Assembly (NCBI GenBank): GCA_964409915.1 | Contig: CAYPEQ010000007.1 | Location: forward strand, 3,386-67,385 | Reading direction: 5' to 3' | DNA: 64,000 nt | Origin: an uncultured Methanoregula sp. | GTDB lineage: Archaea > Halobacteriota > Methanomicrobia > Methanomicrobiales > Methanospirillaceae | In this document: positions 4,580 to 60,696 of the stretch, one piece after another | Layout: the number at the start of each line of letters is the position of its first letter | Position numbering within the stretch: position 1 is the first letter of the stretch | The notes under the pieces: model-generated | What the model was told of the DNA's origin: nothing | Database searches by the model: none | What the model saw: the letters and a program-made list of their open reading frames with translations, nothing else | Made by a program: the position numbers and the translations under genes

Positions 4580-4597
4580 GTACAGGGTGCATCAATT

Positions 4598-5737: not shown

Positions 5738-5797
5738 TCGGTCAAGCATCCCCAACCATTTTAGTATCCTGAAACGATCACTTATTATTGAACGCGT

Positions 5798-14511: not shown

Positions 14512-14904
14512 TTACAAAGAATGCTGTGGCCGGGAGTTAATGAGCGCTTTGCCGATAAGATCGAGGAGTTCAGTATCAACAAATGGTTTGAAGATCACGC
14601 CACTCTGAGCAACACCCATCATTCGCGCAAGGACATTCTCTGATGAGAAAGCGGTTATAAAAATAACGGGGATCGAAAATCGCTGCTGGATCTTTTGTGA
14701 CGTATCGATGCCATCGAGGGAGCCTCCAAGACCGATATCCATGAGAATGATATCAGGTTTTGGGCATTTTTCAAGTGCCTCAATGGCCATTTCGCCGGAG
14801 GAAGCCGGTTCGATAACGTTGTAACCTGCTCGTTCAAGTATCTCGGTTAGATGAAGCATGATCAATCCTTCGTCTTCGACTATCAGTACAGCTTCCCCGG
14901 TCAT
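14512..14904 (-). CDS. Single-domain response regulator (receiver)
   Basis: An internal ATG at 14904 gives MTGEAVLIVEDEG..PDIILMDIGL..VIFITA..IFKPF, so the canonical acidic pocket, T and K positions are present. Confidence 0.8.
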   Translation of the reverse strand: MTGEAVLIVEDEGLIMLHLTEILERAGYNVIEPASSGEMAIEALEKCPKPDIILMDIGLGGSLDGIDTSQKIQQRFSIPVIFITAFSSENVLARMMGVAQSGVIFKPFVDTELLDLIGKALINSRPQHSL

Positions 14905-14960
14905 ATGTTTTCCCTGGTATTTGTCCACCTCATGAAGTCTCTTCCTTTTATGCGGATTTT

Positions 14961-18039: not shown

Positions 18040-18816
18040 ATTTTTGACGATCCGGGATCTTTCCTGGAAATACGCAAAAAGATCTTCACCCCATTTCACT
18101 GCTGAGGGGTCGACACTGATGAGATCCCGTTTTGTATCAAATATGCCGTTGGAGTAAAAGAAGGCCATAGAGAGGTATTTCTCTGTAATGATATAGGAAA
18201 ATTTTATCTCGCCATTATAAACGTAAAGGTGTGCATTGTCGTATTCCAACCATTCGGTAATCTGCGTCCGATAGTTGGCTGCGACAATCTCAAACACAGT
18301 GCGGGTCAGGACAAGAGTCGTATCTATGCCATTTTTTGCAAGCGACAGGAAGAGATCCGGGTAAATCGGGTGAACCATGTGAGTGATTCCCTTCACCCAG
18401 GTGGAATTTTCCAAGATATTCCGGAATTCTTTGTGGGACTCGTAGATCTGCTCGTCTCTGCTTTCCACGATCTGGATGTCGCCGAGCTCACCGACGCGGA
18501 GGAGAAATTCCTTGGGGAGGGCGTTGATATCATGATCCTGCCAAAATTTCTTTTCTTTTTCCAGAACGCCGAGTGTTTTGTTGAGCGGTCCAAGGAAATG
18601 GGCAATAAGCTCGCCCAGTTCCGTAAGAGCATATTTTTTTCCTTTTTTGCAAACCAGTTTTTCGTCTTCAAGGATCTTAATCTGGGGAAGCATGCCGGTT
18701 GACGTTACTTCGAGTAACGTTTTTATCTCCTCCCAAGTTTTCGGGCCGTCTTTTAAGAGGATAAGGAGGTTTTTTCGTTTTTGTGAATAACAGATGGTAC
18801 AGAGTAAATCAGCCAT
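18010..18816 (-). CDS. ArsR-like wHTH + DUF1724 (FilR1-type) transcriptional regulator
   Basis: The N-terminus CYSQKRKNLLILLKDGPKTWEEIKTLLEVTSTGMLPQIKILEDEKLV is a wHTH. The ~180-aa C-terminal domain is typical of the methanogen DUF1724 regulator family. The 3' end overlaps the convergent UbiA gene by 30 nt. Confidence 0.75.
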   Translation of the reverse strand: MADLLCTICYSQKRKNLLILLKDGPKTWEEIKTLLEVTSTGMLPQIKILEDEKLVCKKGKKYALTELGELIAHFLGPLNKTLGVLEKEKKFWQDHDINALPKEFLLRVGELGDIQIVESRDEQIYESHKEFRNILENSTWVKGITHMVHPIYPDLFLSLAKNGIDTTLVLTRTVFEIVAANYRTQITEWLEYDNAHLYVYNGEIKFSYIITEKYLSMAFFYSNGIFDTKRDLISVDPSAVKWGEDLFAYFQERSRIVKNLDDEINRPL

Positions 18817-32655: not shown

Positions 32656-33023
32656 CTTAGCCACCAACTCCATCAAATGAACAAACAACCCGGAGTTACA
32701 AGTATTTTGACAAAATTGAGAGATTCCCAATTTCAAATAAACCTGTACATCTTAGTTACCATACATTCTATAGGACAATATAAAGAGATTACGATATAAA
32801 GTGACGTTGCATTAACGGAACTTTATAAAAATGATACAGTCGTTAGACAGTATTGTTAACCCCTTAAAAATCCCGACAACGCAACAGAAGGCTCTGTTAA
32901 GTCTTCGAATGATAGCATTAAGCCTACATCGAGGAAAATATGTCCCCACCCGCAAGACGCATCAAGTTCCTCCAAAGATACCTTTAAACGCCTCTTGTAC
33001 ACACATCATCGAAGTGAGAAATC

Positions 33024-42517: not shown

Positions 42518-43837
42518 ATGACAACCTCAAAACGTCAGGCAAAGAAACGACACGAGACGCCCCTTAACCTGCTCAGGAAATACTGGGGCTATGCCACATT
42601 TCTGCCTCTTCAGGAGTCAATAATCAACGCGGTCCTTGCAGGACAGGATACCTTGGCCATTCTTGCCACCGGGAGCGGAAAATCGATCTGCTACCAGGTA
42701 CCAGGGTTGTGTCTCGGTGGTCTCACCGTTGTCATCTCACCACTCATTGCGCTTATGAAAGACCAGGCCGATGATCTTAATGCCCGGGGGATACTGGCAG
42801 CTGCCTGCACCGGAACACTCGATTATCGCGAGCGTGCAAAAGTCATCACCGACATAAAAGAAGGAAGACTGCAGTTCCTGTTTATCTCCCCGGAAAAAGC
42901 CACGCAGGCCGGTTTTCTTGAGATCCTCACAACAGCACCAGTCCATCTCATTGCCATCGATGAAGCCCACTGCATCTCGGAATGGGGGCACTATTTCCGG
43001 CCTGAGTACCGAAAACTGGCCCGGTTCAGGGACTATTTCCCGGGTGTACCGGTCATTGCCCTTACGGCAACTGCAATTCCTGAAGTCAGGAAGGACATCT
43101 GCCGGCAGCTCGGGCTTGTCCACGTCCAGGAATTCGTAGGCAGTTTTAACCGGGAGAATCTTACCTACAAGGTAACCGAAAAGAAAAACCCGCTTATCCT
43201 TATCACCGATATACTCAGCCGGCATAAAAACGAACCGGGGATCATCTACTGCATGAGCAGGAAAACAACCGTGGAGTTGACCGGGGAGCTCCGTAAGAAG
43301 GGATTTACGGCACGTGCCTATAACGCAGGCATTTCCGCGCCGGTGAGGGCAGGCATCCAGGATGCATTTCTGAACAACACCGTGCAGATCATATGTGCCA
43401 CTGTTGCGTTCGGCATGGGGATCGATAAGCCCGATGTCCGGTTTGTTGTTCATTATGATCTCCCCAAAACCATCGAGTCCTATTACCAGGAGACCGGCCG
43501 GGCAGGCCGGGACGGGAAGCCTGCTGAATGCATTCTCTTCCACAGCAAGACCGATGTGGAGAAAATCCGGAACTTGTTGTCCTATGGTTGCAAGAACAGC
43601 CAGACGGTCAAAATGGCACGGGATAAATTCCGCGATCTATGCCATTTCTGCGAGATCACCTCGTGTAAAAGGAGTTTTCTGCTAGCTTATTTTGGGGAAG
43701 GTCAGGGCCCTGACGGTTGTGCGATATGTGAGACCTGTATGCATCCAAACATACCTGCGGGCAAGGTCATCAGTCATAAAAAAGTGCGGAGTTATCGTGG
43801 GAGAATTGCTTGCGCCAATCCGGTCCCTGCCAGCTGA
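42518..43837 (+). CDS. recQ: RecQ-family ATP-dependent DNA helicase (short form, no HRDC)
   Basis: Motifs FLPLQESIINAVLAG.DTLAILATGSGKS and DEAHCISEWGHYFRPEY, the helicase C domain, and the Zn-binding CHFCE..C..CAICETC. Confidence 0.9.
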   Translation: MTTSKRQAKKRHETPLNLLRKYWGYATFLPLQESIINAVLAGQDTLAILATGSGKSICYQVPGLCLGGLTVVISPLIALMKDQADDLNARGILAAACTGTLDYRERAKVITDIKEGRLQFLFISPEKATQAGFLEILTTAPVHLIAIDEAHCISEWGHYFRPEYRKLARFRDYFPGVPVIALTATAIPEVRKDICRQLGLVHVQEFVGSFNRENLTYKVTEKKNPLILITDILSRHKNEPGIIYCMSRKTTVELTGELRKKGFTARAYNAGISAPVRAGIQDAFLNNTVQIICATVAFGMGIDKPDVRFVVHYDLPKTIESYYQETGRAGRDGKPAECILFHSKTDVEKIRNLLSYGCKNSQTVKMARDKFRDLCHFCEITSCKRSFLLAYFGEGQGPDGCAICETCMHPNIPAGKVISHKKVRSYRGRIACANPVPAS

Positions 43838-43898: not shown

Positions 43899-45452
43899 AT
43901 GATCGATACTGCAAACCTTCCCGAAAATCCCGGCTGTTATCTCTATGCAGACGAGAACGGAACAATCATTTATGTCGGGAAGGCAAAGAACCTCAAAAAA
44001 AGAGTGTCGAGTTACTTCACTAAAAAAGATCATGACGCCAAGACCAGGAGCCTCGTTGCCCATATCGCATCAGTCGATGTTGTAGTCACCGATAACGAGA
44101 CCGAAGCATTCCTTCTTGAAAATACGCTTATCAAAAAACACCAGCCGAAGTATAATATCGACTTAAAAGATGCCAAGCGCTATGCATGGATAGAACTGAC
44201 CCTGGAGAAGTACCCGCGACTGGTGATCGCCCGCCGGGCAACCGGGGACGGGACCTTTTTTGGACCTTTTGTCTCCGCAGCGGAACGCGATCACGTACTT
44301 AATGTCGCAAAAAAAATATTTCATCTTCGGACCTGTAAAAAACTCCCAAAACGCCCGTGCCTCCGGCTGCATCTGCAGTCCTGCAGTGCCCCCTGCACTG
44401 GCACAGTAAGCCTTGAGGATTACGAAGAGAATGTCAAAAAAGCCTCACTCCTGCTCAAGGGGAAATCTACCGAGTTGCTTTCCAGGCTCCGTAACGAGAT
44501 GACTACCCGGGCTGAAGAGAAAGAATACGAACGGGCTCTTGTGTTACGGAATGAAATTACTGCTATCGAACACCTTGCCGAACGTCAACAGGTAGAGCGC
44601 CGGCGCACATACGACCAGGATGTTATTGCATGGCAGGTCACTGAGGGAAAGGTCTACCTTCTCGTATTCAATGTTGAACGGGGAGCTCTCGCAAACAAAG
44701 AGGAATTCACCTTCGATACCGGAGAAGATTTCTTCGAAGAGTTCCTTGTCCAGTATTATTCTGACCGCGAACCCCCAAAAGAATTGATCCTTGATCACGA
44801 GACTGATCCGGCCCTTGCATCATTCCTTTCGGTAAAAAAAGGACAGCAGGTAGAAATTGTTGTTCCCAAGAGGGGAGATAAACGATTATTGCTCGACCTT
44901 GCCAAAAAGAACCTCGAAATTGCGTTCTTCCGCGATATCCTGAAAAGTGTTGAACTGGGGGCGGCCCTTAACATGCCTTTTGCACCTTCGGTAATCGAAT
45001 GCTTTGATATATCCCATCTCGCCGGTACGGCCATGGTCGGGTCAATGGTGCAGTTTCGGGACGGAAAACCGGATAAAAGCAACTACCGGCGTTTTAAGAT
45101 CAAGACGGTAGAAGGCATTGACGATTTTGCATCCATAGCAGAGATTGTAAAAAGGAGGTATAAACGTCTCGCTGATGAGCAGGCCCCGTTTCCGGACCTT
45201 GTGATTATTGACGGCGGGAAAGGGCAGCTTTCAGCGGCCCGGGATGCTTTGGCCACACTTGGATCTGCAAATCTGCCGGTTATCGCTATTGCAAAACGAG
45301 AAGAAGAAATCTATATGCCCGATGATGATTTCCCCCTTAGGCTTGATAAGAAAAGCATTGCGCTTCGCTACGTTCAGGAGATAAGAGACGAGGCTCACCG
45401 GTTTGCAATTACCTATAACCGGCTACTGAGAAAAAAGAAAGTTATAACCTGA
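43899..45452 (+). CDS. uvrC: Excinuclease ABC subunit C (lacks the C-terminal helix-hairpin-helix domain)
   Basis: GIY-YIG N-terminus GCYLYADENGTIIYVGKAKNLKKRVSSYF, UVR motif, DGGKGQ endonuclease domain. It ends about 80 aa after DGGKGQ at ..EAHRFAITYNRLLRKKKVIT. Confidence 0.9.
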   Translation: MIDTANLPENPGCYLYADENGTIIYVGKAKNLKKRVSSYFTKKDHDAKTRSLVAHIASVDVVVTDNETEAFLLENTLIKKHQPKYNIDLKDAKRYAWIELTLEKYPRLVIARRATGDGTFFGPFVSAAERDHVLNVAKKIFHLRTCKKLPKRPCLRLHLQSCSAPCTGTVSLEDYEENVKKASLLLKGKSTELLSRLRNEMTTRAEEKEYERALVLRNEITAIEHLAERQQVERRRTYDQDVIAWQVTEGKVYLLVFNVERGALANKEEFTFDTGEDFFEEFLVQYYSDREPPKELILDHETDPALASFLSVKKGQQVEIVVPKRGDKRLLLDLAKKNLEIAFFRDILKSVELGAALNMPFAPSVIECFDISHLAGTAMVGSMVQFRDGKPDKSNYRRFKIKTVEGIDDFASIAEIVKRRYKRLADEQAPFPDLVIIDGGKGQLSAARDALATLGSANLPVIAIAKREEEIYMPDDDFPLRLDKKSIALRYVQEIRDEAHRFAITYNRLLRKKKVIT

Positions 45453-45905: not shown

Positions 45906-46694
45906 ATGGCAAATACCTATCTTGGACGAGACGACGCACCGATTGAAGCGGCCACATGGAAATTGATCGACGATGTGATGATACAGGCTGCAAAAAGCCA
46001 GATGACAGGCCGGAAGATCCTGCCCATTGAAGGGCCATTCGGGTTCGGTCTTAAGGTCATCCCGATGGGAGATTATACCATTGATGATGGGATCGTAGGA
46101 AGCACCGCGATTCCCGTGACGATGATCAGGACAGAATTTTCCCTTGCAAAACGGGATCTTGCTGCCTATGAACGCGACCACATTGTCCTGGACACTACCC
46201 CGGTAGCATGTGCGGCAATGGATGCGGCTGAAAAAGAAGACAGGATCCTCTTCTCGGGACTTCCGGGAATTGACGGCCTCCTCAATGCAGAGGGCGCAGG
46301 TTCACTTACTCTTACCAAGTGGGACAAAGTAGGCGCAGCAGCAGACCAGATTATCAATGCAGTCACAAAGCTTGACGAGGCAGGGTTCCATGGACCGTAC
46401 AGCATGGCACTTGCCCCGGCACTGTATAACCTGCTCTTCCGACGGTATCCCCAGGGGGATGGGACAGAACTCGATCATATCCGATCCATTGTCACCGATG
46501 GTGTCGTAAAGGCGCCGGCACTCAGGAAAGGTGGTGTCTTACTTGCCTCCGGCAGCCAGTACACATCTGTCGCTATCGGCCAAGACATGGTGACCGGGTT
46601 CAATGGACCTATAGGTGATCTCCTCGAGTTCCAGATTTATGAAAGCCTTGCTCTCCTTATCCGTGCACCTGAATCAATCCTTGTATTAAAGTAA
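45906..46694 (+). CDS. Family 1 encapsulin shell protein (Linocin_M18 / HK97 fold)
   Basis: 262 aa, colinear by eye with Thermotoga maritima encapsulin: TGRKILPIEGPFGFG, AEKEDRILFSG, FHGPYSMALAP, IGQDM and a C-terminus APESILVLK. It starts 4 nt after the cargo stop with AGGAG upstream. Confidence 0.85.
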   Translation: MANTYLGRDDAPIEAATWKLIDDVMIQAAKSQMTGRKILPIEGPFGFGLKVIPMGDYTIDDGIVGSTAIPVTMIRTEFSLAKRDLAAYERDHIVLDTTPVACAAMDAAEKEDRILFSGLPGIDGLLNAEGAGSLTLTKWDKVGAAADQIINAVTKLDEAGFHGPYSMALAPALYNLLFRRYPQGDGTELDHIRSIVTDGVVKAPALRKGGVLLASGSQYTSVAIGQDMVTGFNGPIGDLLEFQIYESLALLIRAPESILVLK

Positions 46695-47129: not shown

Positions 47130-47783
47130 TTATGGTTGGTATGCAAGCGGATCCCTGATACCAGCCTGTGCAAACGCTTCGAGCCTTTCCGTGCAGGCAC
47201 CGCATTTCCCGCAGGAGAGGTCTTCACCTTTGTAGCATGACCAGGTATCTGCATATTCCACACCGAGCCCAATTCCTTTTTTAACAATGTCGCCTTTGGA
47301 GAGCCATAAATAAGGCACACTGAGTACGAGATCGTGCCAGTCGCAAAGGTGTAACGCTGTGGTCATAGCACTCACAAACGCCGGCCGGCAATCAGGGTAA
47401 ATCGCATGATCTCCAGCGTGTGCCGCGTAAAACAGGTTTTTTGCACCTATACCGATAGCGTAAGCAGCTGCAAGGCTCAAAAAGATCATGTTCCGGTTGG
47501 GGACCACCGTCTGCTTCATGGTATCTTCAGCATAATGGCCTTCGGGGACCTTCCAGGTGTCCCGGGTCAGGCTCGAGGGGGCAAGATCGTTTAAGACTGG
47601 AAGGTTGACAAGGGTATGAGGGACATGCAGTTTTTTACAGGTCTTTTCTGCGCACCGGATCTCCTTTTTATGCTTCTGGGAATAGTCAAAGGTGACCGCC
47701 GCAACCTCGTATCCCTGATCGATGAGATCGTACAGAAGAGTAGTGCTGTCCATGCCCCCGGAAAAAATAAGTACTGCCTTCAT
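47130..47783 (-). CDS. queC: 7-cyano-7-deazaguanine synthase
   Basis: MKAVLIFSGGMDSTTLLY, VPNRN, and the C-terminal zinc site CYKGEDLSCGKCGACTER. Confidence 0.9.
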   Translation of the reverse strand: MKAVLIFSGGMDSTTLLYDLIDQGYEVAAVTFDYSQKHKKEIRCAEKTCKKLHVPHTLVNLPVLNDLAPSSLTRDTWKVPEGHYAEDTMKQTVVPNRNMIFLSLAAAYAIGIGAKNLFYAAHAGDHAIYPDCRPAFVSAMTTALHLCDWHDLVLSVPYLWLSKGDIVKKGIGLGVEYADTWSCYKGEDLSCGKCGACTERLEAFAQAGIRDPLAYQP

Positions 47784-47923
47784 TGTTGTATCCTTTCCCT
47801 GCTAACCGTTATATTCACGAGCTATATCAAGGAAACGCCGGGCCTCGTGGCAGTAAAAAGAGACAGGCACCTAAAAAGCATATCATTACAAACAACGAAA
47901 ATATAATTCGGGAGTCACCAGAA

Positions 47924-49570
47924 ATGGCCGGTCCATACCTGAAAAGCGGCGAATCTATCATCCTGACAACGGATCGGGTGCTCATTGATGATGTTGAGTA
48001 CGACCTGATCCTTACAAGCCACCGGCTTGCCTTAGTTGACAGCGGCCATTTCAATGAACAGCCACAGGTTGTCCCATTTGACACGATAATATCGGTTAAA
48101 GGCGGAACCACACCGGCACGGGAACCTTGCATCACTATCGCCGTCGTCGACCCGGCTGACATCGATAATGAAAAGACCCTTAAACTTATCTTCACCCAGC
48201 AACCTTACCAGGACCGGGCCGCGGAATGCGATCTCTGGGTAAAAAAATTGATCGAGCATATCGTTTCGGTCCGTCACGAACCGGCACCGGCAGGTAAACA
48301 ACCGGTCGACGTAAAAGCCGAGGGCACACATGCTACCATCCGCCGGTATGTCGCTCCTGAAAAGATTCGGCCCCATTCGGATGTACCCCTGATCAGAAAA
48401 CCATCAGAGGAGTTATTGTCAGCGTTACAGAAAACGGCACAGGAAAAGTATGACCACGCACCGGTTGAACCCGGGCAGTCTGAACAACCTGACATTGAGG
48501 TTACTTCAGAACCTGAACGCGAAGGGGAATTACCGTCACCAGATCTCTTACCAGAAGAGGAAAGCATTGACATCACACCGATAGCCAAAACATCACCCCA
48601 TGATGAAGGCATCCATTTCAAAAGGGAGAGCCACTCTGAGGAAACAGCCGGGCAGCCAGCCCCGGAAGTTCCTTTAACAGAAAAGATTCCTGAAGAGACA
48701 AGGGAATCAGAAGAACAGTCATCTCCGTTAATTGCAGAGGAAAGCCTGAGTATAAAAGTCCCGGATCTGCGGGATCAGGAACAACGCCGCCCCGAACCGA
48801 TGGACGATATCGAAAAATTTGCCGGTGTATATGCAGACAAGATCCCCGGTCCGGCAGTATCATACGGAGCACTATCGGAACTTGATATACCCGGTGATGT
48901 GCAGGCCGAAGAATCAAAAACTCCTGATGACGAAAGCTCGGAAGGGACGGGTCTACCCGACACAGTGGTTTTCCCGGTACTTTCAGGCAGTGTCAATCAA
49001 GACGAAACGCCAAAAACTCCGGAAAGAAATGCTCCACCAGTACCCATTGAACCCCCCTCTCCGGGAAAGACGGCGGGAAAAAAGCCGGTCGGGATGATTG
49101 TCGCAATTATACTCGTGCTTATCGTTGTCTTTGGAGCAACAGCCATGATTGTTTTGTCCTCTCCTGCGGGAGTGGTAAGCGGTGCAAATAACACGGTCGT
49201 TGTACCAATCGTCACTTCACCTCCAGTTACAACACTTGTACCACAGGAGGTAATGCCTTCACAAGGCGTGTGGGTAAAAGTAACCTATAACGGAACTTAT
49301 CTGGGTGAATACGGGAATCCCGGAGGCCTCATTCTGGTCCGGGGAACCGGAGAACAGTTCTATGCCATTAAAAACAGCAGTGATCTCGTCCAGGCAAGCT
49401 TCCAGAAGATGGACTATTCCGGGGATACACTAACGGTTGACATTTATAATAACGGCTCACTGATCACGGACATCAGCAAAAGTGCCCCGGAAGCAACGAT
49501 AGCGCTGCTCGTTGATCCCAAGACAGGAAAACCCCCGTATGTACCGGTCAGGCAAGAGGGTGTACCGTAA
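47924..49570 (+). CDS. Membrane protein: N-terminal PH/GRAM-like domain, acidic disordered region, one TM, extracellular beta-rich domain
   Basis: ATG 47924 gives MAGPYLKSGESIILTTDRVLIDDVEYDLILTSHRLALVD. A ~230-aa Glu/Pro/Ser-rich segment follows, then the TM MIVAIILVLIVVFGATAMIVL. The longest ORF starts at 47783, inside queC antisense. Confidence 0.55.
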   Translation: MAGPYLKSGESIILTTDRVLIDDVEYDLILTSHRLALVDSGHFNEQPQVVPFDTIISVKGGTTPAREPCITIAVVDPADIDNEKTLKLIFTQQPYQDRAAECDLWVKKLIEHIVSVRHEPAPAGKQPVDVKAEGTHATIRRYVAPEKIRPHSDVPLIRKPSEELLSALQKTAQEKYDHAPVEPGQSEQPDIEVTSEPEREGELPSPDLLPEEESIDITPIAKTSPHDEGIHFKRESHSEETAGQPAPEVPLTEKIPEETRESEEQSSPLIAEESLSIKVPDLRDQEQRRPEPMDDIEKFAGVYADKIPGPAVSYGALSELDIPGDVQAEESKTPDDESSEGTGLPDTVVFPVLSGSVNQDETPKTPERNAPPVPIEPPSPGKTAGKKPVGMIVAIILVLIVVFGATAMIVLSSPAGVVSGANNTVVVPIVTSPPVTTLVPQEVMPSQGVWVKVTYNGTYLGEYGNPGGLILVRGTGEQFYAIKNSSDLVQASFQKMDYSGDTLTVDIYNNGSLITDISKSAPEATIALLVDPKTGKPPYVPVRQEGVP

Positions 49571-51066: not shown

Positions 51067-53022
51067 TTGACAGGGTTCCAGCTCGTCTCTTCCTTTCCGC
51101 CCGCAGGCTCACAGCCGGAAGCAATAGCCCGGCTCAATGACGGCCTTACCGACAACATTCGGTGCCAGACACTCCTTGGGGTTACCGGCTCCGGAAAAAC
51201 GTTTACTATGGCAAATGTGATCGCTGCAGCAGACAAACCGACGCTTGTTATCGCTCACAACAAGACACTTGCCGCCCAGCTGTATCAGGAATTCTGTGAT
51301 TTCTTTCCTAAAAACCGGGTCGAGTATTTTGTCTCGTATTATGACTATTACCAGCCGGAATCGTATATCCCTGCAAAGGACCAGTACATCGAGAAGGACT
51401 CGTCCATTAACCCTAAAATTGAGATGCTACGGCTATCAGCTACTGCCTCGCTTTCCTACCGGCGCGATGTGATTGTCGTCGCTTCAGTCTCCTGCATATT
51501 CGGCCTTGGAAATCCTGAAAACTTCCGGAACCTCGGTTTTGATCTTACCGTCGGCCAGAAAATCTCAAGAAACGAGATCATGAGCCGGCTCCTGGATATC
51601 CAGTTCGAACGTAATGATATTGATCTTTCTCCAGGCCGGTTCCGGGTCAAAGGCGACACCATCGATATTGTCCCGGGTTATTTTAATGATATTATCAGGA
51701 TAGAACTCTTCGGCGACGAGATCGAGCGTATCCGGGAAGTGGACAAAAATACCGGGGCAAAAAAAGAGGAAATGAAATATTTCTACGTTTACCCGGCACG
51801 CCATTTCGTAACACCGGAAAGTGCACAGAAAGCTGCTATCACTTCAATAAAGGAAGAGCTCGATGAAGTACTGCCTACATTAGGGCTGGTTGAAGCGCAC
51901 CGGCTCAGGCAGCGGACGAACTTTGATCTCGAGATGATACGCGAGACCGGTTCCTGCAAAGGGATCGAGAATTACTCCAGGCACTTCGATGGCAGGAAGC
52001 CAGGAGTGAAACCCTATTGCCTTCTCGATTACTTCCCCGATGATTTCCTTATCATTATTGATGAGAGCCACCAGACAATCCCCCAACTGCACGGTATGTA
52101 CAATGGCGATCGTTCACGAAAAGAGACGCTCGTAAACTATGGTTTCCGTCTACCTTCTGCACTTGACAATCGCCCCTTGAAATTTCACGAGTTTGAGCAG
52201 TACATGCGCCAGGTAGTTTTCGTTTCGGCAACGCCGGGACCGTATGAATTAAAGCATTCCACACAGGTGGTTGAACAGATTATCCGTCCAACAGGACTTA
52301 TTGACCCGGCAGTAGAAGTAAGGCCCACTGAAGGCCAGACGCTCGATGTAATAACCGAAGTGAATGAGACCGTTGCTCGCGGCGACCGGGTCCTGATCAC
52401 AACACTTACTAAAAAACTTGCCGAGGAACTTTCCGAGTACCTTGCTGACCGGGGAATCCGCACACGATATCTCCATTCAGAAATTCAGACACTCGAGCGT
52501 ACAGAAATTATCCGCGAACTGCGGCTGGGTAAGTTCGATGTCCTGGTTGGAATTAACCTCCTCCGGGAGGGTCTTGATATCCCGGAAGTGGGGTTTATTG
52601 GCATTTTGGATGCCGACAAGGAAGGGTTCCTCCGCGATGCCCGGAGTCTCATACAGATCATCGGAAGAGCCGCAAGGAACCTGAATGCAAAGGTAGTGCT
52701 TTACGCCGACAATATGACTGATTCGATGAAAACGGCCATCTCAGAGACAAAACGCCGGCGCGAGATGCAGGTCGCTTACAACGAGGAACATCATATTGTC
52801 CCGCAGACGATTATAAAACCGGTAAAAGAGAAAGAAGTCGAGATCAAGGATACAAAACATGTACCAAAAGCCGAGATCCCCAATGTTGTCATCGAACTGG
52901 AAAAACAGATGCGGGATGCTGCGGACAAACTTGACTTCGAGCGGGCTATTGCTTTACGTGAACAGGTAAAAAAACTCAATGAACGACTCAGGGAAAGTGG
53001 AAAACATCGCGGACATGAATGA
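51067..53022 (+). CDS. uvrB: Excinuclease ABC subunit B
   Basis: The TTG start gives MTGFQLVSSFPPAGSQPEAIARL. Also present: GVTGSGKTFTMANVI, the DESH box (IIIDESHQT), helicase C and the C-terminal UVR motif. Confidence 0.95.
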   Translation: MTGFQLVSSFPPAGSQPEAIARLNDGLTDNIRCQTLLGVTGSGKTFTMANVIAAADKPTLVIAHNKTLAAQLYQEFCDFFPKNRVEYFVSYYDYYQPESYIPAKDQYIEKDSSINPKIEMLRLSATASLSYRRDVIVVASVSCIFGLGNPENFRNLGFDLTVGQKISRNEIMSRLLDIQFERNDIDLSPGRFRVKGDTIDIVPGYFNDIIRIELFGDEIERIREVDKNTGAKKEEMKYFYVYPARHFVTPESAQKAAITSIKEELDEVLPTLGLVEAHRLRQRTNFDLEMIRETGSCKGIENYSRHFDGRKPGVKPYCLLDYFPDDFLIIIDESHQTIPQLHGMYNGDRSRKETLVNYGFRLPSALDNRPLKFHEFEQYMRQVVFVSATPGPYELKHSTQVVEQIIRPTGLIDPAVEVRPTEGQTLDVITEVNETVARGDRVLITTLTKKLAEELSEYLADRGIRTRYLHSEIQTLERTEIIRELRLGKFDVLVGINLLREGLDIPEVGFIGILDADKEGFLRDARSLIQIIGRAARNLNAKVVLYADNMTDSMKTAISETKRRREMQVAYNEEHHIVPQTIIKPVKEKEVEIKDTKHVPKAEIPNVVIELEKQMRDAADKLDFERAIALREQVKKLNERLRESGKHRGHE

Positions 53023-53075: not shown

Positions 53076-55121
53076 TTATTCCGTTGACGAATTACCAAAC
53101 CGGTATGCACATTCCGAAATCGTCATTTCGAACCGCGCACCCTTCCCAACTTTTCCGGTTTCCTTGATAGTTATACCTGTAATCGCAAGTATTTCCCGGG
53201 CGAGGAATAAGCCGTAGCCGGTATTTTTTCCAAAACCTCTGGTAAAGATCCGCTCTTTATCCTGCCCGGGAATACCGATGCCGTTATCTTCGAATGCAAG
53301 AACTACTTCTTTTCCTGTCCGTCGGTAGGAAACATGTATTTCTGTGACCCTTTCACCGTGACGAAGCGCATTTTCAATGAGATTGAAAAAAACTTTTTCG
53401 ATGAGAAGATCCGCATAAATCTCAAGATTTCCTGTCTCAATCACAATAGTTATATCCCCGGTATTTGCTGTAGCTAGTACCGAAGATATACAATCTTTTA
53501 CCTGCTTCCACTGAGGCGGCTGAACTCCAACATTCTGGTAGATTCGTGTGAACACGATCTGGCTGTGGATCGTCTTTGCAACATTTTCTTCTTTTTGAAT
53601 CAGGTCGGCAAATTTTTCGTTACCTAACTGTTTTTTCAGGATCCCGATATATCCTTCAAGCATAGTCAACTGATTAAGAATATCATGTCGTGTAATACTG
53701 GTCAAAAGGCTCACTTGTTTATTTGCCTTTTTTATTGCATCTTCGGCGAATTTACGATCGGTGATATCCCGTGCTGATGCATAAAGCATATCTTCACCAT
53801 CGATGGTAACACTGGTTGCAGTAATCTCAACATTACATAAGGATCCATCCTTCCGGTGATGACATGTTTCAAATTCGATACATTTTACCTGCTTTGATTC
53901 AAGTCGCTCGCGTACCTGATTCAGGCTTAATTGTGTATCCCAATCCTTGACATTGAGTGATGCAGCCTCATTTGCAGAATAACCGAGATGGGACAGGAAT
54001 GCATCATTCCATTCGCGGAGATTACCGTTTTTATCAATGATATGAATTGCATCCGTCGACGTTTGCAGCAGCAATTCATAGTGCTTGCTTTTTTGTTCCA
54101 GTTCAGACTCCAGGCGTTTCCTGTCAGTTATATCGGTCATCATACCAAATGAACCGCGAAATTCCCCTGCATTATCTTTTACCGGAGAAGCAGAGACCAG
54201 CATCCAGCATACACTACCATTCTTACGCCGGAACCTGCGTTCGTACGTTTCGCTATTCCCCTCTATTCGCGTATGCATTTTGCTCTCGTGATCCTGGATA
54301 TCTTCCGGGAACAAAAAATCAGCAGCATTCCTGCCAATCAGCTCATCTTGAGAATAACCTAGGATATCTGTCACTTTCCAGTTGGCAAATGTAACATTAT
54401 ACCCGGGATCGACTACCCAGATCCCTTCATTGGCAGTCTCGACAATGCGTCGATAATTTTCCTCACTCTCTTTGAGTGCGTTTTGTACACGGAGATGCTC
54501 CTGTATCTGTTTTTCCAATGCATTGTTGGCTATAACAAGCTCGGTGGTCCGTTCCATCACTCGTTCTTCAAGGGCTACCTGGTACCTCTTCATTTCTGTA
54601 ATATCTTCAAAGATAATACCTACAGCGCGGCTCCCTGCTTCGAACACGAGCGGGATAAATTTCATCAGGAAATACTGAGTTTCACCGGCTTTTTCCATAC
54701 GGAAATCAAAAGTCCTGCCGGATCCATCCAGTGCCTCTTTCAGTAAGGCAAACTGTTCCTTGGAAAAATACGAGGCAAGAGAAGAATGTTCTAATTGCCT
54801 TCCCTTGATATCCTCTTTAGAAACGCTAAAATAAGAAAGAAATGAGTCATTAGCTTCCTGTATAAAGAGATCCTTATCAAGAATGAGAATAAGATCGGAT
54901 GCAAGACTCAGCAGATTAGTCAACGGCAGCCGCTGGGAGAGATAGAACAGCTTAGCGCGTCCCAGTTCCCTTAGATCTGCCTGACCCGACATCACCAGAG
55001 AGTTAAGGTATTTTGCAGCGGTTGCACGGTTGAGGGATAGGTCTTTTGAAACTTCCTCTATAGTCAGGCCTTTTGGGTTAATTTTTAATATATCTTTGAT
55101 ACGATCCAGTTCGTTTTCCAA
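53076..55121 (-). CDS. wHTH - PAS x3 - HisKA - HATPase sensor histidine kinase
   Basis: The N-terminus LTIEEVSKDLSLNRATAAKYLNSLVMSGQADLRELGRAKLFY is a wHTH. Three PAS blocks follow, then the H-box ITRHDILNQ and the ATPase motifs NLIENALRHG, DNGIGIP and GKNTGYGLFLAREI. Confidence 0.85.
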   Translation of the reverse strand: MENELDRIKDILKINPKGLTIEEVSKDLSLNRATAAKYLNSLVMSGQADLRELGRAKLFYLSQRLPLTNLLSLASDLILILDKDLFIQEANDSFLSYFSVSKEDIKGRQLEHSSLASYFSKEQFALLKEALDGSGRTFDFRMEKAGETQYFLMKFIPLVFEAGSRAVGIIFEDITEMKRYQVALEERVMERTTELVIANNALEKQIQEHLRVQNALKESEENYRRIVETANEGIWVVDPGYNVTFANWKVTDILGYSQDELIGRNAADFLFPEDIQDHESKMHTRIEGNSETYERRFRRKNGSVCWMLVSASPVKDNAGEFRGSFGMMTDITDRKRLESELEQKSKHYELLLQTSTDAIHIIDKNGNLREWNDAFLSHLGYSANEAASLNVKDWDTQLSLNQVRERLESKQVKCIEFETCHHRKDGSLCNVEITATSVTIDGEDMLYASARDITDRKFAEDAIKKANKQVSLLTSITRHDILNQLTMLEGYIGILKKQLGNEKFADLIQKEENVAKTIHSQIVFTRIYQNVGVQPPQWKQVKDCISSVLATANTGDITIVIETGNLEIYADLLIEKVFFNLIENALRHGERVTEIHVSYRRTGKEVVLAFEDNGIGIPGQDKERIFTRGFGKNTGYGLFLAREILAITGITIKETGKVGKGARFEMTISECAYRFGNSSTE

Positions 55122-55146
55122 GACATTATCAATCCTAGTCTATTAT

Positions 55147-55160
55147 CTGTTAATTAACAG
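55147..55160. promoter_or_regulatory. Perfect 14-bp palindrome CTGTTAA|TTAACAG in an AT-rich divergent promoter region
   Basis: It lies 26-39 nt upstream of the HTH-kinase ATG (55121). It is followed by short direct repeats (TATTGT x2, CAATAAT x2). Confidence 0.3.
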
Positions 55161-55513
55161 TATTTATTGTTATTGTTAGTTATCAATAATAATCTTCAAT
55201 AATCGTCATTAAACAAAATGTTTAAATATAATTGAGATAAAGTGGATGATCATCTTCAGAACCAAGAAAACGGGTTCTGAGTTTCAACTTTCAAAAAATT
55301 TAGGTGATTGGTGTGCAGGAAAAAACAACTTTCGTAGAAATCCAGGCAAGAAACTCATCTTGCAACATGTCTGTTGAGGCCGATCTGAAGGATTATTTCG
55401 AGATTCTTTATGATCTTCCACAAAAATTCAATGAATACGTCCACACCCCGACAATTCCCTCGTGGCGCTGAAGAGAAAACAGACAAGAACACCAAACTAC
55501 GGAGAGGTACATT

Positions 55514-56107
55514 ATGGAAACTGAAACCAACCTTATCAAGGAAACAATAAGGATCGCTGATACGACTGCCAACCCGGCTCCGCTGGGATTACTGGCATTC
55601 GGCATGACGACGATTCTTTTGAACCTGCATAATGCCGGGTTCTTTGCAATGGGATCTGCGATCTTTGCAATGGGAATATTCTTCGGCGGGATTGCGCAGA
55701 TCATTGCAGGTATTATGGAATGGAAAAAGAACAACACGTTTGGCTCGACCGCGTTTGTCTCGTACGGTTTTTTCTGGATCTCGCTTGTAGGCCTGATCCT
55801 CATGCCGGTATTCGGATGGAGCGGTCCGATCCAGATGCAAGCACTTGTATCATTCCTTACACTCTGGGGATTATTCTCGTTTGTGATGTTCATCATCACA
55901 TTACGGTTGTCAAGAGCGCTCCAAGTGGTTTTTGGATCCCTGACGCTGCTGTTTCTGCTCCTGATTGTGGGAAACGCTGTTGGTAACGATACCATCCTCG
56001 AGATCGCCGGGATCGTGGGTATTATCTGCGGGCTCTCAGCGATGTATACCGGCCTTGGTCAGGTAATGAATGAAGTGTATAAAGAACAGGTAATCAGACT
56101 TGGGTGA
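55514..56107 (+). CDS. satP: GPR1/FUN34/YaaH-family acetate (succinate-acetate) channel
   Basis: [49 protein letters not shown] and SYGFFW are colinear with E. coli SatP/YaaH. GGAGAGGT sits 5 nt before the ATG. Confidence 0.9.
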
Positions 56108-57591
56108 ACAAAATGGTTGAATTAAAAGAATACGAATTGATGTTTGAGTACAATCCATTGGCTCAGGCGATTATAGACAAGGACTTGAAATTCCTGAAAG
56201 TAAATTCGGGATTTGTAAAGCTTTTCGGGTACTCAGCAGACCGGCTGCTCGCAATAAAGATCACGGATCTCCGAGCTCAAGGTATGTTAAAATATCTCAA
56301 AGACACAGGCAAGTCGTATATTGACGCGATTAACCTAAAGAAAAGAACGTTTGGGGAATCAACCATTGAAGCACCGACTGGCATCCATGTGGTCCAGCGG
56401 GCTAATATCCCGGTACTTAATGAAAAAGGTGAGGTAACTTCCGTTTATGTTACGTACCACGACATCACAAAAATCGTGAAATCACGGGAATTCATGGAAA
56501 AGGAAGTCGGAGAGCTCAGCAAGGTCTACAGCAAGATGGCCGAAGGCGATCTCACCGTCCGGTACGATCTTACCAAGCCGGATGAAGATACCCAGGAGAC
56601 CTATGAACAACTCGTCAAGCTCCGGGACGCGGTCCGCGGGATCGTCATCAATCTTGAAAACAATATTCATGACGTCAACAAAAAGATGCAGAACCTGACC
56701 TCAACAGCGGACGAAGCAACCCGCAGTGTTGACGAAGGGTCCAAAGGAGTCCAGCAGATCGCTCAAAACGCAGGTAAAGTCAGCAGCAATGCGGAAAAGG
56801 CGTCACAGGGAGTCGACCAGATTGCAAAAGCCATGCAAGACATGAGCGCGGCAGTCGAAGAGATCACCTCAAGCATGGAATCAGTCTCGACGCTTTCCAA
56901 ACAGGCTAACGAACTCTCCCAGTCCGGTGCGGCTCTAGCAGGTAATGCCGAAAAGAGTATGGCCGAGATCTCCACGTCCTCCGCAAAAGTCCATGAGATC
57001 GTCTCAGATGTAGAAAAGCAGATGGGAGAGATCTCAAAGATCGTCGTACTTATCAGGGAGCTGGCCAACCAGACAAACCTCCTGGCACTTAATGCAGCTA
57101 TCGAAGCTGCCCGGGCTGGAGATGCAGGGCGGGGCTTTGCAGTCGTTGCAACGGAAGTAAAATCACTGGCACAGGAGTCACGAAACTCTGCCGAACGTAT
57201 TGAGGAGATGATCACCTCCTTAAAAAAGAGCACGCAAAATGCGTCGGCGGCGATGAACGCTTCGAAACTGATTGTCGAACAGGGTTCAAAAATGGTTACC
57301 GAGACCCTGCAGTCCTTCAACAAGATTGCTGCTGCTGTTGAAAAAGTAGCATCGAGTGCGACTGAGGTGGCAGCAGCTACAGAAGAGCAGGCAGCGACAA
57401 CCGAAGAGATCACTGCAAGTGTTTCCGAAGTTGCAAGTCTTGTGGAACAGACCGCAAAAGAAGCCAGTGATGCGGCTGCAGCGACAGAAGAATCATCAGC
57501 TGCACTGGACGAGATCAGCCGTATGGTGGCAACCGTAGATAAAATTGCAGTCGAGGCAATGGAAGCAAACAAAAGATTCAAGGTGGATTAA
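56104..57591 (+). CDS. Soluble methyl-accepting chemotaxis protein (PAS - linker - MCP signalling domain)
   Basis: There are no TM segments. An N-terminal PAS-like block is present. The conserved hairpin tip is [40 protein letters not shown]. The start is GTG 56104 (4-nt overlap with the satP stop) or ATG 56113. Confidence 0.9.
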
Positions 57592-57606
57592 ACGGGGCGC
57601 GTTACT

Positions 57607-58146
57607 ATGGCGGCAAAAGCAAGCGAGCCAGAAGAGGCGCAGGCCCAGAACCTGGAAGATACGACAAGAAAACGACAGGGAAACATTCAGATCGTTGAGT
57701 TCGTCCTTGGCAAAGAAAGCTTTGCCATCGATCTGTTCGATGTTAAGGAAGTCGTGGAATACACCACGATCACCAAACTTCCCAATGTGCCGGCATACAT
57801 AAAAGGCATTATCGATCTCCGGGGTGAGATCACGACAATCATCGATCTCAAGCACCGGCTCAACATTACAGACAGCAGCCAGGTCGCGGCCGAATCATCC
57901 CGTATCATCGTACTCGATAACAAGATTACCGGGACCAAACTCGGAATACTTGTCGATGATGTTACCTCGGTTTCAACCTTTGAGGCAAAGCAGGTCGACT
58001 ATACCTCAGCTTCAGTAAGCAAAGAGGAGACGGCGATCATCGGTATCATCAAACGTAAGGTCAAGGTCAAAGACAAGGAGAAAAACGAATTGATCATCTG
58101 GATCGATATCAAGCAACTCCTCGAGGATATTGATACGTCAGCATGA
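57607..58146 (+). CDS. cheW: Chemotaxis coupling protein CheW
   Basis: VEFVLGKESFAIDLFDVKEVVEYTTITKLPNVPAYIKGIIDLRGEITTIIDLK. It starts 15 nt after the MCP stop. Confidence 0.88.
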   Translation: MAAKASEPEEAQAQNLEDTTRKRQGNIQIVEFVLGKESFAIDLFDVKEVVEYTTITKLPNVPAYIKGIIDLRGEITTIIDLKHRLNITDSSQVAAESSRIIVLDNKITGTKLGILVDDVTSVSTFEAKQVDYTSASVSKEETAIIGIIKRKVKVKDKEKNELIIWIDIKQLLEDIDTSA

Positions 58147-58265
58147 GATTTTCTCCCGGGTTTTGAGATCTGATTCGGATACGTCAGAAAAAGTACGTTG
58201 GATGGATGACAGGATATCATCCATTTTACCGTATGGTTATGTTAGGCAGGTGGAGGATTGTATTC

Positions 58266-58661
58266 ATGATTTCAGTACTCTATGTAGATGACTGTTCGTC
58301 ATTACTCTACTGTATCTGCCGTTTTCTGGAGTCAAAAGGGGATATGGAGGTTGAAACAGCACTTTCAACCAAAGATGCATCACGGATACTGGACTATATT
58401 TCCTTTGATGTCATTGTGACTGATTACAACACCGAGGAATCCTCTGGTATAGGTCTCCTTCAACAAGCCCGGCAGAAAGGCATTATGACGCCATTTATAT
58501 TCTTTACCCTGGAGAAAAACGGTGTTATGGAACTGGAAGCCGCACAGTATGGTCGGGTAGCTTTTGTGCCAAAAATACTCAAATTCGGTTCCAGCTGTGA
58601 TGGGCTTGAAAAAGCCATCCGGACTATATTCCAGAAATCCCATGCGGGGAATCTGCATTAA
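58266..58661 (+). CDS. Single-domain response regulator (receiver)
   Basis: ATG 58266 gives MISVLYVDD..FDVIVTDYN..IFFTLE..FVPK, so the acceptor Asp, Thr and Lys positions are present. It is not obviously CheY-type. Confidence 0.7.
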   Translation: MISVLYVDDCSSLLYCICRFLESKGDMEVETALSTKDASRILDYISFDVIVTDYNTEESSGIGLLQQARQKGIMTPFIFFTLEKNGVMELEAAQYGRVAFVPKILKFGSSCDGLEKAIRTIFQKSHAGNLH

Positions 58662-58884
58662 CAAAAGGATCAGATTCTCACTTGAATATAAGGCAGGACC
58701 AAAGGATTTGTCAGGTTCTTCGTTTCTGATTTTCTTGATTTCCTACCGTAACAGAAACCCCTATGTACCAGTGATAGCGTAATACTACGCTGATATCCTT
58801 CCAAACCCATTGAGAAACCTGGTGCAGTCTTGATAGTTCCTCTGAGTTTTTCTCTTCTGAACCAGGTATTTTCAGGTGAATACC

Positions 58885-60696
58885 ATGGAACCAACACCTC
58901 AAAACAACGCTCCCGACCCTGAAGTCCCGGCCCATGATCCTCATTACAAATGGGTTGCCCTTTCAAACACCACAATCGCCATGTTCATGGCCGCGGTTAA
59001 TGGAAGTATCCTCCTTATTTCGCTTCCCGCCATCTTCAACGGGATCCATATCAATCCCCTCACCTCGTTCCAGTACCTGCTCTGGATCCTGATGGGATAC
59101 GGGATCGTTACGGCAACACTTCTTCTCAGTTTCGGACGGCTCTCAGATATGTACGGCCGGGTCCGGCTATACAACATCGGATTTGCAATCTTTACTATCG
59201 GTTCCATTCTTCTCTTCCTGACACCTAATACCGGAGATGCCGGGGCAGTCGAACTCATCATCTTCCGGCTTGTCCAGGCTGTTGGCGCCGCATTTATCTT
59301 CTCCAACAGTGCCGCAATCCTCACCGATGCATTTCCGCCCGATGAACGGGGAAAAGCCCTCGGTCTCAACCAAGTGGCAGCCCTCGCAGGTCAGTTCATT
59401 GGCCTGATTATCGGTGGTATCCTTGCGGTCTTTAACTGGCGGTATGTCTTTTTGATCACGGTTCCGTTCGGCATGATCGGGACAATCTGGGCGTTTTTAA
59501 AACTCAAAGAACCGGTCTACCAGAAGCGATCCCAGAAAATTGATGTTTGGGGGAACCTTTCCTTTATTGGCGGCCTGACCCTCTTTCTCGTTGGCATCAT
59601 TTACGCCCTTATCCCGTACGGCAGCTCACCCATGGGTTGGGGTGACCCGTTCGTGATTGCTGCACTCCTTGCCGGCATTATTCTTCTTGTAGCTTTCCCC
59701 ATAATCGAGACAAAAGTAGAAGATCCAATGTTCCATCTGGATCTTTTCAGGATCCGCAACTTTGCCTTCGGAAACGCGGCCGGTTTTCTCTCGGCCCTTG
59801 CCCGTGGCGGCGTAATGATCATTTTGATCATCCTGCTTCAGGGAGTTTGGCTTCCTCTGCATGGCTTCAGTTTCGAATCGACACCGTTCTGGGCCGGAGT
59901 ATACATGCTGCCGCTTACCATCGGCTTTGTGATAATGGGCCCACTTTCCGGTATCATCTCCGACAAGTACGGCGCCCGGTGGATCAGCACATTTGGCATG
60001 ATCCTGGTCGGGATCTCGTTTTTGATTCTCGCGATTCTGCCTTACAATTTCGATTACCTGACTTTTGCGATAGCATTGATGATCATGGGCCTTGGTAACG
60101 GTATGTTCAGCTCCCCCAATGCAGCGGCTATTATGAACTCGGTACCGGCTGATAAACGCGGTGTTTCCTCCGGAATGATGTCGACTCTTATGAATTCCGG
60201 GTTTGTCCTGTCTATGGGAATGTTCTTTACAATTATCGTGTTCGGTCTCACAAAGGCGTTTCCCCCTATGCTCACTGAGGCACTTTCGACGGCTAACGCT
60301 ACACCGCTTATCCCGGCTATGAGCGCGATACCCCCTACAGGAGCACTCTTTGCGGCATTCCTGGGATACAACCCGGTCCAGATGATTCTTACGGGCCTCT
60401 CGCCGTCACTAATTGCCTCTATTGCTCCGACAACTATAACGACCCTTACTGGTGTAGTTTGGTTCCCGACGACGCTCGCACTAGCATTCATGCCTTCGCT
60501 TTCCCTCTCATTCTATATCGGTGCATGTCTTTCCTTTATCGCAGCTCTATTTTGTGCCCTGAGAGGCGACAAGTATGTAGCGGAGATTGATCGCGTTAAC
60601 CTGGAGATAAGTAGCAGCAACGATCCGCAAGAGGCATCAAGCGAAAACGTAAAGGAGGAACCAGCCATACAAAAAGAAGAGGAGGGATTGGCATGA
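58885..60696 (+). CDS. MFS transporter, 14-TM DHA2 (EmrB/QacA-like) type
   Basis: About 14 hydrophobic segments and the motif [13 protein letters not shown] after TM2. AGGTGA sits 5 nt before ATG 58885 (the longest ORF starts at GTG 58876). Confidence 0.85.

Follow-up and report, generated by a model that had tools for sequence, protein, structure and literature searches.

A SatP-type channel gene linked to a soluble PAS chemoreceptor gene in Methanoregula: a candidate chemosensory module for acetate or a similar carboxylate

A stretch of 64,000 nucleotides from an uncultured Methanoregula sp. (contig CAYPEQ010000007.1, positions 3,386 to 67,385, of assembly GCA_964409915.1), called the window here, carries a gene for a channel of the SatP/AceTr family. 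It is followed by genes for a soluble methyl-accepting chemotaxis protein (MCP) with a PAS domain, for CheW and for a stand-alone receiver (Table 1). It was found that the satP-MCP pair recurs in 20 species-level genomes as well as in metagenomic loci, with a nearly constant spacing and a characteristic junction between the two genes. We lean, with some reserve, towards the reading that the module is a channel-coupled chemosensory input for acetate or a similar small carboxylate, signalling through its own CheW to CheA arrays. The four open reading frames (ORFs), their order, their common strand and their coordinates had been proposed in an original prediction made from the letters of the window, and the ORF list of the window agrees with it. 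The gaps that it gave, 15 nt between the MCP gene and cheW and 119 nt between cheW and the receiver gene (to the ATG at 58266), could likewise be read in the sequence.

Linkage of satP and the chemoreceptor gene

A survey of genomes for satP-MCP adjacency had been set by the original prediction as its first test, and it was carried out from both sides. On the MCP side, one genome was taken per species, which gave 44 archaeal loci of the MCP family with usable upstream sequence. A satP gene lies directly upstream in 23 of these loci, which come from the 20 species-level genomes mentioned above. Genomes with the order satP-MCP-cheW belong to Methanoregulaceae, to metagenome-assembled genomes (MAGs) labelled Methanospirillum and to other Methanomicrobiales. 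On the SatP side, a SatP-centred metagenome scan gave 46 relatives that are at least 66% identical to the window SatP and have downstream sequence. A PAS-MCP gene begins 4–12 nt past the satP stop in 39 of the 46, the metagenome contigs (about 40 of them linked) being not all independent and their proteins spanning 58–88% identity. An MCP gene of any kind follows in 42 of the 46; the other four have neither MCP type, and two of these four have less than 120 nt of downstream sequence. Among SatPs below 66% identity (n = 33), four have an MCP gene and ten adjoin an acetyl-CoA synthetase gene. Our data indicate that the pairing of satP with the MCP gene is not a matter of chance. They also exclude one outcome that would have refuted the original prediction, namely a pair confined to this one genome.

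The pair can also be present more than once. Two full satP-MCP-cheW copies each were found in SPRUCE 366, MFD09567 and 5_bin.90. Tandem or compound modules were observed in loci L061 and L098. One arrangement is SatP-MCP-CheW-receiver with another, divergent SatP (55% identity) behind it; the other is MCP-CheW-SatP-MCP-CheW-receiver, in tandem. In three of the 46 close SatPs (L067:1135-4560, L072:4733-8143 and L069) a transmembrane MCP of 1136–1141 aa lies about 130 nt downstream. As this receptor stands beside one subclade of the linked SatPs, the association of SatP with MCP is not limited to one receptor architecture. A clade of 505-aa MCP paralogs has no satP. In L012 (5890-6000) a frameshifted 3' remnant of satP, which includes the GGGTGA junction described below, is fused before an intact MCP gene; at this locus a deletion has recently removed the channel. 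Locus L016 (JBAZEO010000110.1), a 6.9-kb contig that was binned as 'Dehalococcoidia bacterium', also carries satP-MCP-cheW. In neighbour-joining trees it is closest to Methanoregula STB_182 (L018), and it is probably a misbinned contig.

The satP stop codon (TGA, 56105–56107) is separated by 5 nt from an ATG at 56113, and a GTG at 56104 overlaps the stop as GTGA. Both codons had been offered as the start of the MCP gene, and it is the ATG that stood. Public gene calls place the start there, giving 492 aa, and the first methionine is at least 90% conserved. The GTG was rejected, as it is out of frame in related loci with spacers of 4 or 6 nt. Among 43 linked metagenome loci the spacer measures 5 nt in 32 and 4–6 nt in 40, while its sequence is variable between loci. 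Of 51 distinct linked junctions, 45 have at the end of satP the hexamer GGGTGA, made up of the last Gly codon and the stop. It is absent from all of 26 unlinked SatP genes, where any Gly codon and any stop may be used. The 3' end of archaeal 16S rRNA can pair with GGTGA(TC). From this complementarity and the bias at the linked junctions we infer that the end of satP embeds a Shine-Dalgarno element, by which the MCP gene would be coupled to satP through termination and reinitiation of translation. A 16S gene, from which the match to the anti-Shine-Dalgarno sequence could be confirmed, is not present in the window. The conservation of the junction argues that it is under selection.

The closest named relatives of both the SatP and the MCP are Methanoregula MAGs, many of them from peat. 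One Methanoregula contig of 2.82 Mb has three SatP genes, of which two lie in modules of the form kinase/SatP-MCP-CheW-receiver. The third lies 65 nt after an acetyl-CoA synthetase gene (L139:4037-6594) and is of the housekeeping type. With two SatPs in modules and a separate one linked to acetyl-CoA synthetase, the module channel is thus a dedicated copy. The MCP-linked SatPs of Methanoregula form one clade in 200 of 200 neighbour-joining bootstrap replicates, apart from the SatPs linked to acetyl-CoA synthetase and from other SatPs. A second clade, likewise with 200/200, unites the linked SatPs of the Methanospirillum type, and it joins the first in 0 of 200 replicates. The MCPs of both lineages belong to the same 492-aa family. 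The presence of two separate SatP lineages before one MCP family means that the channel was either recruited twice or replaced. By either route, a SatP continues to occupy the slot upstream of the 492-aa receptor. In the Methanospirillum-like lineage satP-MCP-cheW lies after porGDAB (L140:6158-12619), the genes for pyruvate:ferredoxin oxidoreductase, which serves the step from acetyl-CoA to pyruvate.

The channel, the receptor and their partners

That the first gene encodes a channel of the satP/aceP type, as predicted, was confirmed by Pfam and NCBIfam matches and by alignment with SatPs of known structure. Its product is a Gpr1_Fun34_YaaH protein (PF01184, E 6.5e-38, 130.9 bits with a cutoff of 25). 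It scores 253 bits against NF038013 (AceTr_1, 'acetate uptake transporter'), for which the cutoff is 50, and 232 bits against the stricter enterobacterial equivalog PRK10659, which is below the cutoff of 297. It can be aligned end to end, at 56% identity, with the crystallised SatP of Citrobacter koseri (5ys3) and Escherichia coli (5zug). Several hydrophobic stretches stand out in its hydropathy profile, which would agree with about six transmembrane helices. The signature motif of AceTr proteins has been defined as NPAPLGL(M/S) (PMC8379382). The window SatP has NPAPLGL at N20-L26, and the next residue is L, not M/S. Structures and mutagenesis of SatP have assigned roles to the FLY constriction (F17/Y72/L131) and to Q50, F64, W76 and A164 (PMC8379382). 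In the C. koseri order F17, Q50, F64, Y72, W76, L131 and A164, the window residues are F29, Q62, F76, Y84, W88, L143 and A176, and these pore positions are kept in 51–57 of 57 linked SatPs. The intact pore residues suggest that the MCP-linked SatP remains a channel.

Nine alignment columns set the linked SatP clade apart. Three of them fall in the cytoplasmic C-terminal tail, one being a charge reversal from Arg to Glu at C. koseri position 179. It was also observed that roughly one half of this clade has NPGALGL where NPAPLGL would be expected, with G at the first altered position in 32 and A at the second in 30 of 57 sequences; the window SatP keeps NPAPLGL. The motif is almost never changed in SatPs that are linked to acetyl-CoA synthetase or in other SatPs; it is essential for uptake according to Ribas 2019, as cited in PMC8379382.

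The second product was predicted to be a cytoplasmic PAS-MCP, and this too was borne out. It matches PAS (PAS_9/PAS_8) and MCPsignal (E 1.1e-48; PF00015, 165.8 bits with a cutoff of 34.6). The highest Kyte-Doolittle value in a 19-residue window is 1.01, so that there is no transmembrane segment and the protein is soluble. The PAS domain (residues about 1-118) is followed by a HAMP-like helix-loop-helix with a GDLT motif (about 119-185) and then by the signalling hairpin. The protein matches the structure of a Thermotoga MCP (2ch7, E 4.8e-34). Identity within the family of 492-aa MCP orthologs is 63–83%, and a run of 29 residues at the hairpin tip of the signalling domain is identical in 55 of 55 of them. 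In AlphaFold2 models built from the alignment of these 55 orthologs the PAS fold is confident (pLDDT about 90), and a helix at 119-143, a loop at 144-157 that carries GDLT and a helix from 158 onwards can be seen. The Pfam HAMP family gave no match in the window MCP; ortholog P0079 has PF00672.

Mean identity in the PAS domain is 0.56 among SatP-linked MCPs versus 0.37 among unlinked paralogs. In the signalling domain it is nearly equal, at 0.74 for linked and 0.71 for unlinked MCPs. This indicates that the PAS sensor domain of the SatP-linked receptors is under constraint. Linked and unlinked MCPs are separated by only five positions, all of them in PAS and partly shared by Methanospirillum-type receptors, which makes them weak evidence.

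CheW (PF01584, E 1.5e-29, 102.8 bits with a cutoff of 23.5) comes after every MCP of this family in archaeal loci, whether SatP-linked or not. The receiver matches PF00072 (Response_reg, E 7.9e-12, 45.8 bits) and by inspection has the residues DD, D, T and K where they are expected. Its ATG at 58266 marks the conserved N-terminus and has a Shine-Dalgarno sequence, GGTGGAGGA, upstream. It was rejected as a CheY, since it gave 32 bits against the equivalog NF007901, whose cutoff is 189. In many loci homologous receivers come after cheW, either alone or fused to a PAS histidine kinase (receiver-PAS-HATPase). The window has 53 non-overlapping ORFs with 110 aa or more. They include no cheA, cheY, cheR or cheB and no archaellum gene, as the original prediction had said; cheC, cheD and cheF were likewise not found among them.

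Possible role of the module and alternative explanations

The module could work in the following way. A dedicated SatP would be made from one transcript with, and probably translationally coupled to, a cytoplasmic PAS-HAMP-like-MCP and its own CheW. The channel would admit external acetate (or a close analogue, for example propionate, formate, lactate or pyruvate) to the cytoplasmic face of the membrane. There the PAS domain would read the acid, either as a free ligand or at the channel, and the MCP-CheW unit would plug into CheA arrays whose genes lie at other places in the genome. For the divergent kinase, with its HTH-like and PAS segments, and for the downstream receiver, a part in regulating the operon or in cross-talk with it is probable. 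The sequences establish the gene content, the conserved linkage, the build of the junction, the specialised paralog, the intact pore residues and the soluble PAS receptor; we infer from them co-translation, which solute is carried, the site of sensing and motility as the output. Acetate is the likeliest solute of its channel, and both the separation of this paralog from the SatP linked to acetyl-CoA synthetase and the porGDAB neighbourhood would fit acetate.

The biology of a related methanogen is in line with such a role. The original prediction named acetate as a chemoattractant for Methanospirillum hungatei and as a carbon source that many hydrogenotrophic Methanomicrobiales need. The genome paper of M. 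hungatei (PMC4704411) confirms that this species requires acetate and is attracted by it, the taxis being cited from a 1989 report by Migas et al. The genome has aceP (Mhun_0634); 15 soluble MCPs are given without a known ligand, and the 27 MCPs in all are said to detect unknown attractants or repellents; aceP and the MCPs are handled separately there (PMC4704411). Within the genus of the window, the cytoplasmic receptor arrays seen in Methanoregula formicica (PMC7534058) and the che genes of Methanoregula boonei, CheF among them (PMC2666748), speak for the same reading. No named M. hungatei protein came up in a search with a SatP of the Methanospirillum type, and no mention of Mhun_0633, Mhun_0635 or Mhun_0636 was found in the literature searched. 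In that literature no methanogen MCP with an assigned ligand was found either.

Several observations weigh against a channel-coupled input for acetate. Three close relatives of the MCP (L009, L024 and L012) have lost satP while the MCP is intact. The channel encoded in cis is therefore dispensable, though other SatP paralogs could substitute for it. The fold search with the PAS model gave only generic LOV/NifL/DosP PAS matches at 14–20% identity, and because these are generic no ligand was derived from them. To our knowledge there is no carboxylate-binding signature for such generic PAS domains. In a Mantel test the SatP distances correlated with those of the MCP signalling domain (r 0.54) and of CheW (r 0.48), which fits inheritance as a cassette; the correlation with the PAS distances was r 0.26, too low for a specific signal of SatP-PAS co-evolution. 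Cytoplasmic arrays of the sandwich type, should the MCPs be part of them, would hold the sensor ends far from the membrane. AceTr proteins also transport formate, propionate, lactate, pyruvate and succinate (PMC8379382), so acetate is the likeliest solute and not a proven one. Finally, Methanoregula boonei is listed without flagella in the compilation of PMC2829493, and many modules are flanked by genes for a histidine kinase and a receiver; the output may thus not be swimming.

Of the alternatives, mere co-regulation fares best, although we hold it to be unlikely. It says that satP and the MCP gene share a promoter, for example for a response to carbon limitation through the divergent kinase, and that the receptor senses an unrelated redox or energy state. 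PAS domains of soluble MCPs often report such states, and the PAS structures nearest to that of the window MCP belong to FAD, FMN and heme PAS domains. Some orthologous MCPs stand without an adjacent satP, which speaks for co-regulation, as does the missing SatP-PAS co-evolution. On the other hand, assimilation is already served by a separate SatP beside acetyl-CoA synthetase, and shared regulation would not call for so much as a fixed 5-nt spacer, the GGGTGA end, the joint duplication of both genes and another SatP lineage recruited to the same slot. Also against it, a Trp is conserved in FAD-binding PAS domains of the Aer/NifL type, and the PAS sequence of the window MCP, by inspection, has neither a Trp nor the Cys motif of the LOV type.

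A second alternative keeps carboxylate sensing and changes its output. The MCP-CheW unit, the upstream kinase and the receiver would steer expression or metabolism on carboxylates, for instance the uptake and assimilation of acetate. Almost every cassette does have a divergent PAS kinase on one side and, on the other, a receiver that stands alone or in a receiver-PAS-HATPase protein, and no further che or arl genes are nearby in the window; the entry for M. boonei points the same way. By the account of PMC2829493, this species is among 206 species analysed that all encode at least one CheA. The known archaeal che systems act on the archaellum through CheY and CheF, and M. boonei has CheF (PMC2666748). 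M. hungatei swims and shows taxis to acetate (PMC4704411), and these gene families occur in it as well. There is furthermore no known route from MCP-CheW units to ordinary histidine kinases, and we regard an output apart from motility as distinctly improbable.

Least probable, and in our view quite doubtful, is a physical transceptor, in which the SatP hexamer would dock the soluble PAS-MCP through its cytoplasmic termini and loops, as a split receptor, so that occupancy of the channel or flux through it is read directly. SatP assembles as a hexamer and keeps its two termini on the inner side of the membrane (PMC8379382). The hexamer may also template a trimer of receptor dimers, six chains per hexamer, at the membrane. 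The tight coupling of the two ORFs, of a 1:1 type, would suit such a complex, as would the clade-specific columns in the cytoplasmic tail of SatP (three of nine, with the Arg-to-Glu change) and the NPGALGL signature. Against it stand the MCP, which has no membrane-binding segment, the three linked SatPs that pair with a transmembrane MCP of another architecture, the lack of SatP-PAS co-evolution and the cytoplasmic arrays seen in M. formicica, which are not attached to the membrane (PMC7534058). If true, it would be a new way to build a chemoreceptor and would give the first ligand-defined methanogen chemoreceptor.

The channel-coupled input would have wider consequences. The module would be the first concrete, testable candidate for acetate sensing by methanogens, and it would offer an input route for archaeal cytoplasmic arrays, for which neither a route nor a ligand is known. 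It would extend the idea of a transporter as co-sensor from histidine kinases to chemoreceptors. Among AceTr channels there would be a sensory lineage of paralogs distinct from the assimilatory one. This would matter for the annotation of acetate uptake in peatland methanogens, which are drivers of methane emission.

Surroundings of the module and comparison with known systems

Table 1. Coordinates of the satP-MCP-cheW module and of the features beside it in the window
Feature	Position	Strand	Remarks
SatP/AceTr channel gene	55514-56107	+	197 aa; PF01184, NF038013
Coupling junction	56102-56112	+	GGGTGA (last Gly codon + stop), then 5-nt spacer before the MCP ATG
Soluble PAS-HAMP-like-MCP gene	56113-57591	+	492 aa; Pfam PAS + MCPsignal
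cheW	57607-58146	+	179 aa; PF01584
Stand-alone receiver gene	58266-58661 (longer ORF from 58206)	+	131 aa from ATG 58266; PF00072
Divergent PAS sensor kinase gene	53076-55121	-	Pfam PAS x3 + HATPase_c
TATA-box-like element TTTAAATA	55221-55228	+	read in the sequence; intergenic alignment
Small ORF A (sORF-A)	55313-55471	+	52 aa from GTG 55313, alternative start 55304; called as a gene in public contigs

The intergenic region between the divergent kinase gene and satP contains a TATA-like octamer, TTTAAATA, which is the probable promoter of the operon. A scan for sigma-70 promoters and intrinsic terminators was set aside, being not applicable to archaea, and an alignment of TATA boxes was used instead. 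The octamer, or TTTTTATA/TTTATATA in its place, aligns in the intergenic regions of L007, L008, L010, L011, L017 and L061 and is preceded there by a conserved block that resembles ATAATCATCAT. An Rfam scan of 54900-59000 gave no match, so no known riboswitch or leader was found. The kinase has an N-terminal winged-helix/HTH-like segment (with a weak Pfam match to HTH_IclR at residues 12-46), three PAS domains, an H-box and HATPase_c. Full-length homologs, 22–75% identical, lie divergently upstream of satP in most linked loci. As an AtoS-like sensor of short-chain acids the kinase was rejected, since it gave 133 bits against a cutoff of 646, a generic PAS-kinase similarity.

Small ORFs recur before satP. 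The sORF-A of the window is a diverged member of a recurrent family of small proteins, with tblastn matches of 38–55% identity in L008, L010, L011, L017, L057, L058, L069 and L072. Of 60 linked loci, 23 have the sORF-A motif RDGLxExxxLLxxLSxxLDxYFALR and 19 have an sORF-B, with the motif GRARLLYxxLxxxGMDExxEIxxxW-stop, which ends 3–20 nt before satP. The window has sORF-A only, and the small-ORF region of L137 lies at 5556-5994. No match to a known family was found for sORF-A or sORF-B.

Other genes of the window deserve mention. An ADP-forming acetyl-CoA synthetase-type protein (21347-23425, - strand; ATP-grasp_5, CoA_binding_2 and Succ_CoA_lig) is another enzyme of acetate and acetyl-CoA. 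A 559-aa protein (8271-9950, + strand) combines a receiver, PAS and a DisA-type diadenylate cyclase (DAC), and would be a response regulator with c-di-AMP synthesis as its output. A regulator of the FilR1 family, with the middle domain of the 'methanogenesis regulatory protein FilR1' (18010-18816, - strand), lies near a receiver / receiver-PAS-kinase pair at 14512-16913. Three gluconeogenic genes stand in a row at 3677-6895 (+ strand), namely a class-I-type FBPase, a class-II FBP aldolase and the archaeal FBPase_3. Within 20 kb are found uvrA (34074-36887), a RecQ-like helicase gene (42518-43837), uvrC (43899-45452) and uvrB (51067-53022), and among the uvr genes lie those for an encapsulin (45906-46694) and a RuBisCO large subunit (about 49.7-51.0 kb). 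The products of 29938-32736 (- strand, 932 aa) and 47783-49570 (+ strand, about 548-595 aa) had no Pfam match at E 1e-5.

The original prediction knew of no described SatP-MCP module, and full-text searches of the literature found no published description either. The AceTr partner, the coupling at the gene level and the specialisation of a paralog appear to be undescribed. The known systems resemble the module in part. The SatP (YaaH) of E. coli and C. koseri (TCDB 2.A.96) is like the window SatP in the signature, the FLY constriction and Q50/F64/W76. The enterobacterial satP gene is not known to have a chemoreceptor neighbour. Unlike it, the window SatP belongs to a dedicated clade which is tied to an MCP by the 5-nt junction and has clade-specific residues. 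AceP of Methanosarcina and Mhun_0634 are, like the window SatP, archaeal AceTr proteins, and a role in acetate uptake for assimilation is predicted for them (PMC4704411). Theirs are housekeeping uptake genes, similar to the one that adjoins acetyl-CoA synthetase (L139), while the window SatP falls in a separate clade (200/200) within chemosensory operons.

Among receptors, Car (Htr11) of Halobacterium salinarum is likewise a soluble archaeal MCP, and its attractant is sensed inside the cell in dependence on uptake (PMC7289035). In the htr table of that paper car is given '-' in a column that we read as adjacent genes; here a channel gene is coupled to the receptor gene. Car is a cytoplasmic arginine transducer, and its sensor domain and ligand differ from those of the window MCP. 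In the haloarchaeal pairs SRI-HtrI, SRII-HtrII, BasB-BasT and CosB-CosT the protein that captures the stimulus is likewise encoded beside its MCP partner (PMC7289035). The window MCP, with its hydropathy maximum of 1.01, lacks the transmembrane helices of its own that mark an SR-Htr-like pair; it also has no periplasmic domain, and its partner is an anion channel. Htr transducers, in contrast, reach the partner by transmembrane helices of their own or by a periplasmic domain. The concept is shared with DctA/DcuB and DcuS ('trigger transporters') of bacterial two-component systems and with chemotaxis that depends on the phosphotransferase system (PTS): a cytoplasmic signalling protein receives a signal that a carboxylate or sugar transporter delivers or controls. 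The partners in these systems are histidine kinases or PTS phosphorelay proteins, not MCP-CheW, the transporters are of other families, and none of the systems is known to use the AceTr family. In M. formicica, Rhodobacter sphaeroides and Vibrio cholerae (F9), soluble MCPs and their dedicated CheW proteins build arrays apart from the membrane, the first of these species being of the same genus as the window (PMC7534058); by gene content the module likewise joins a soluble MCP with a CheW.

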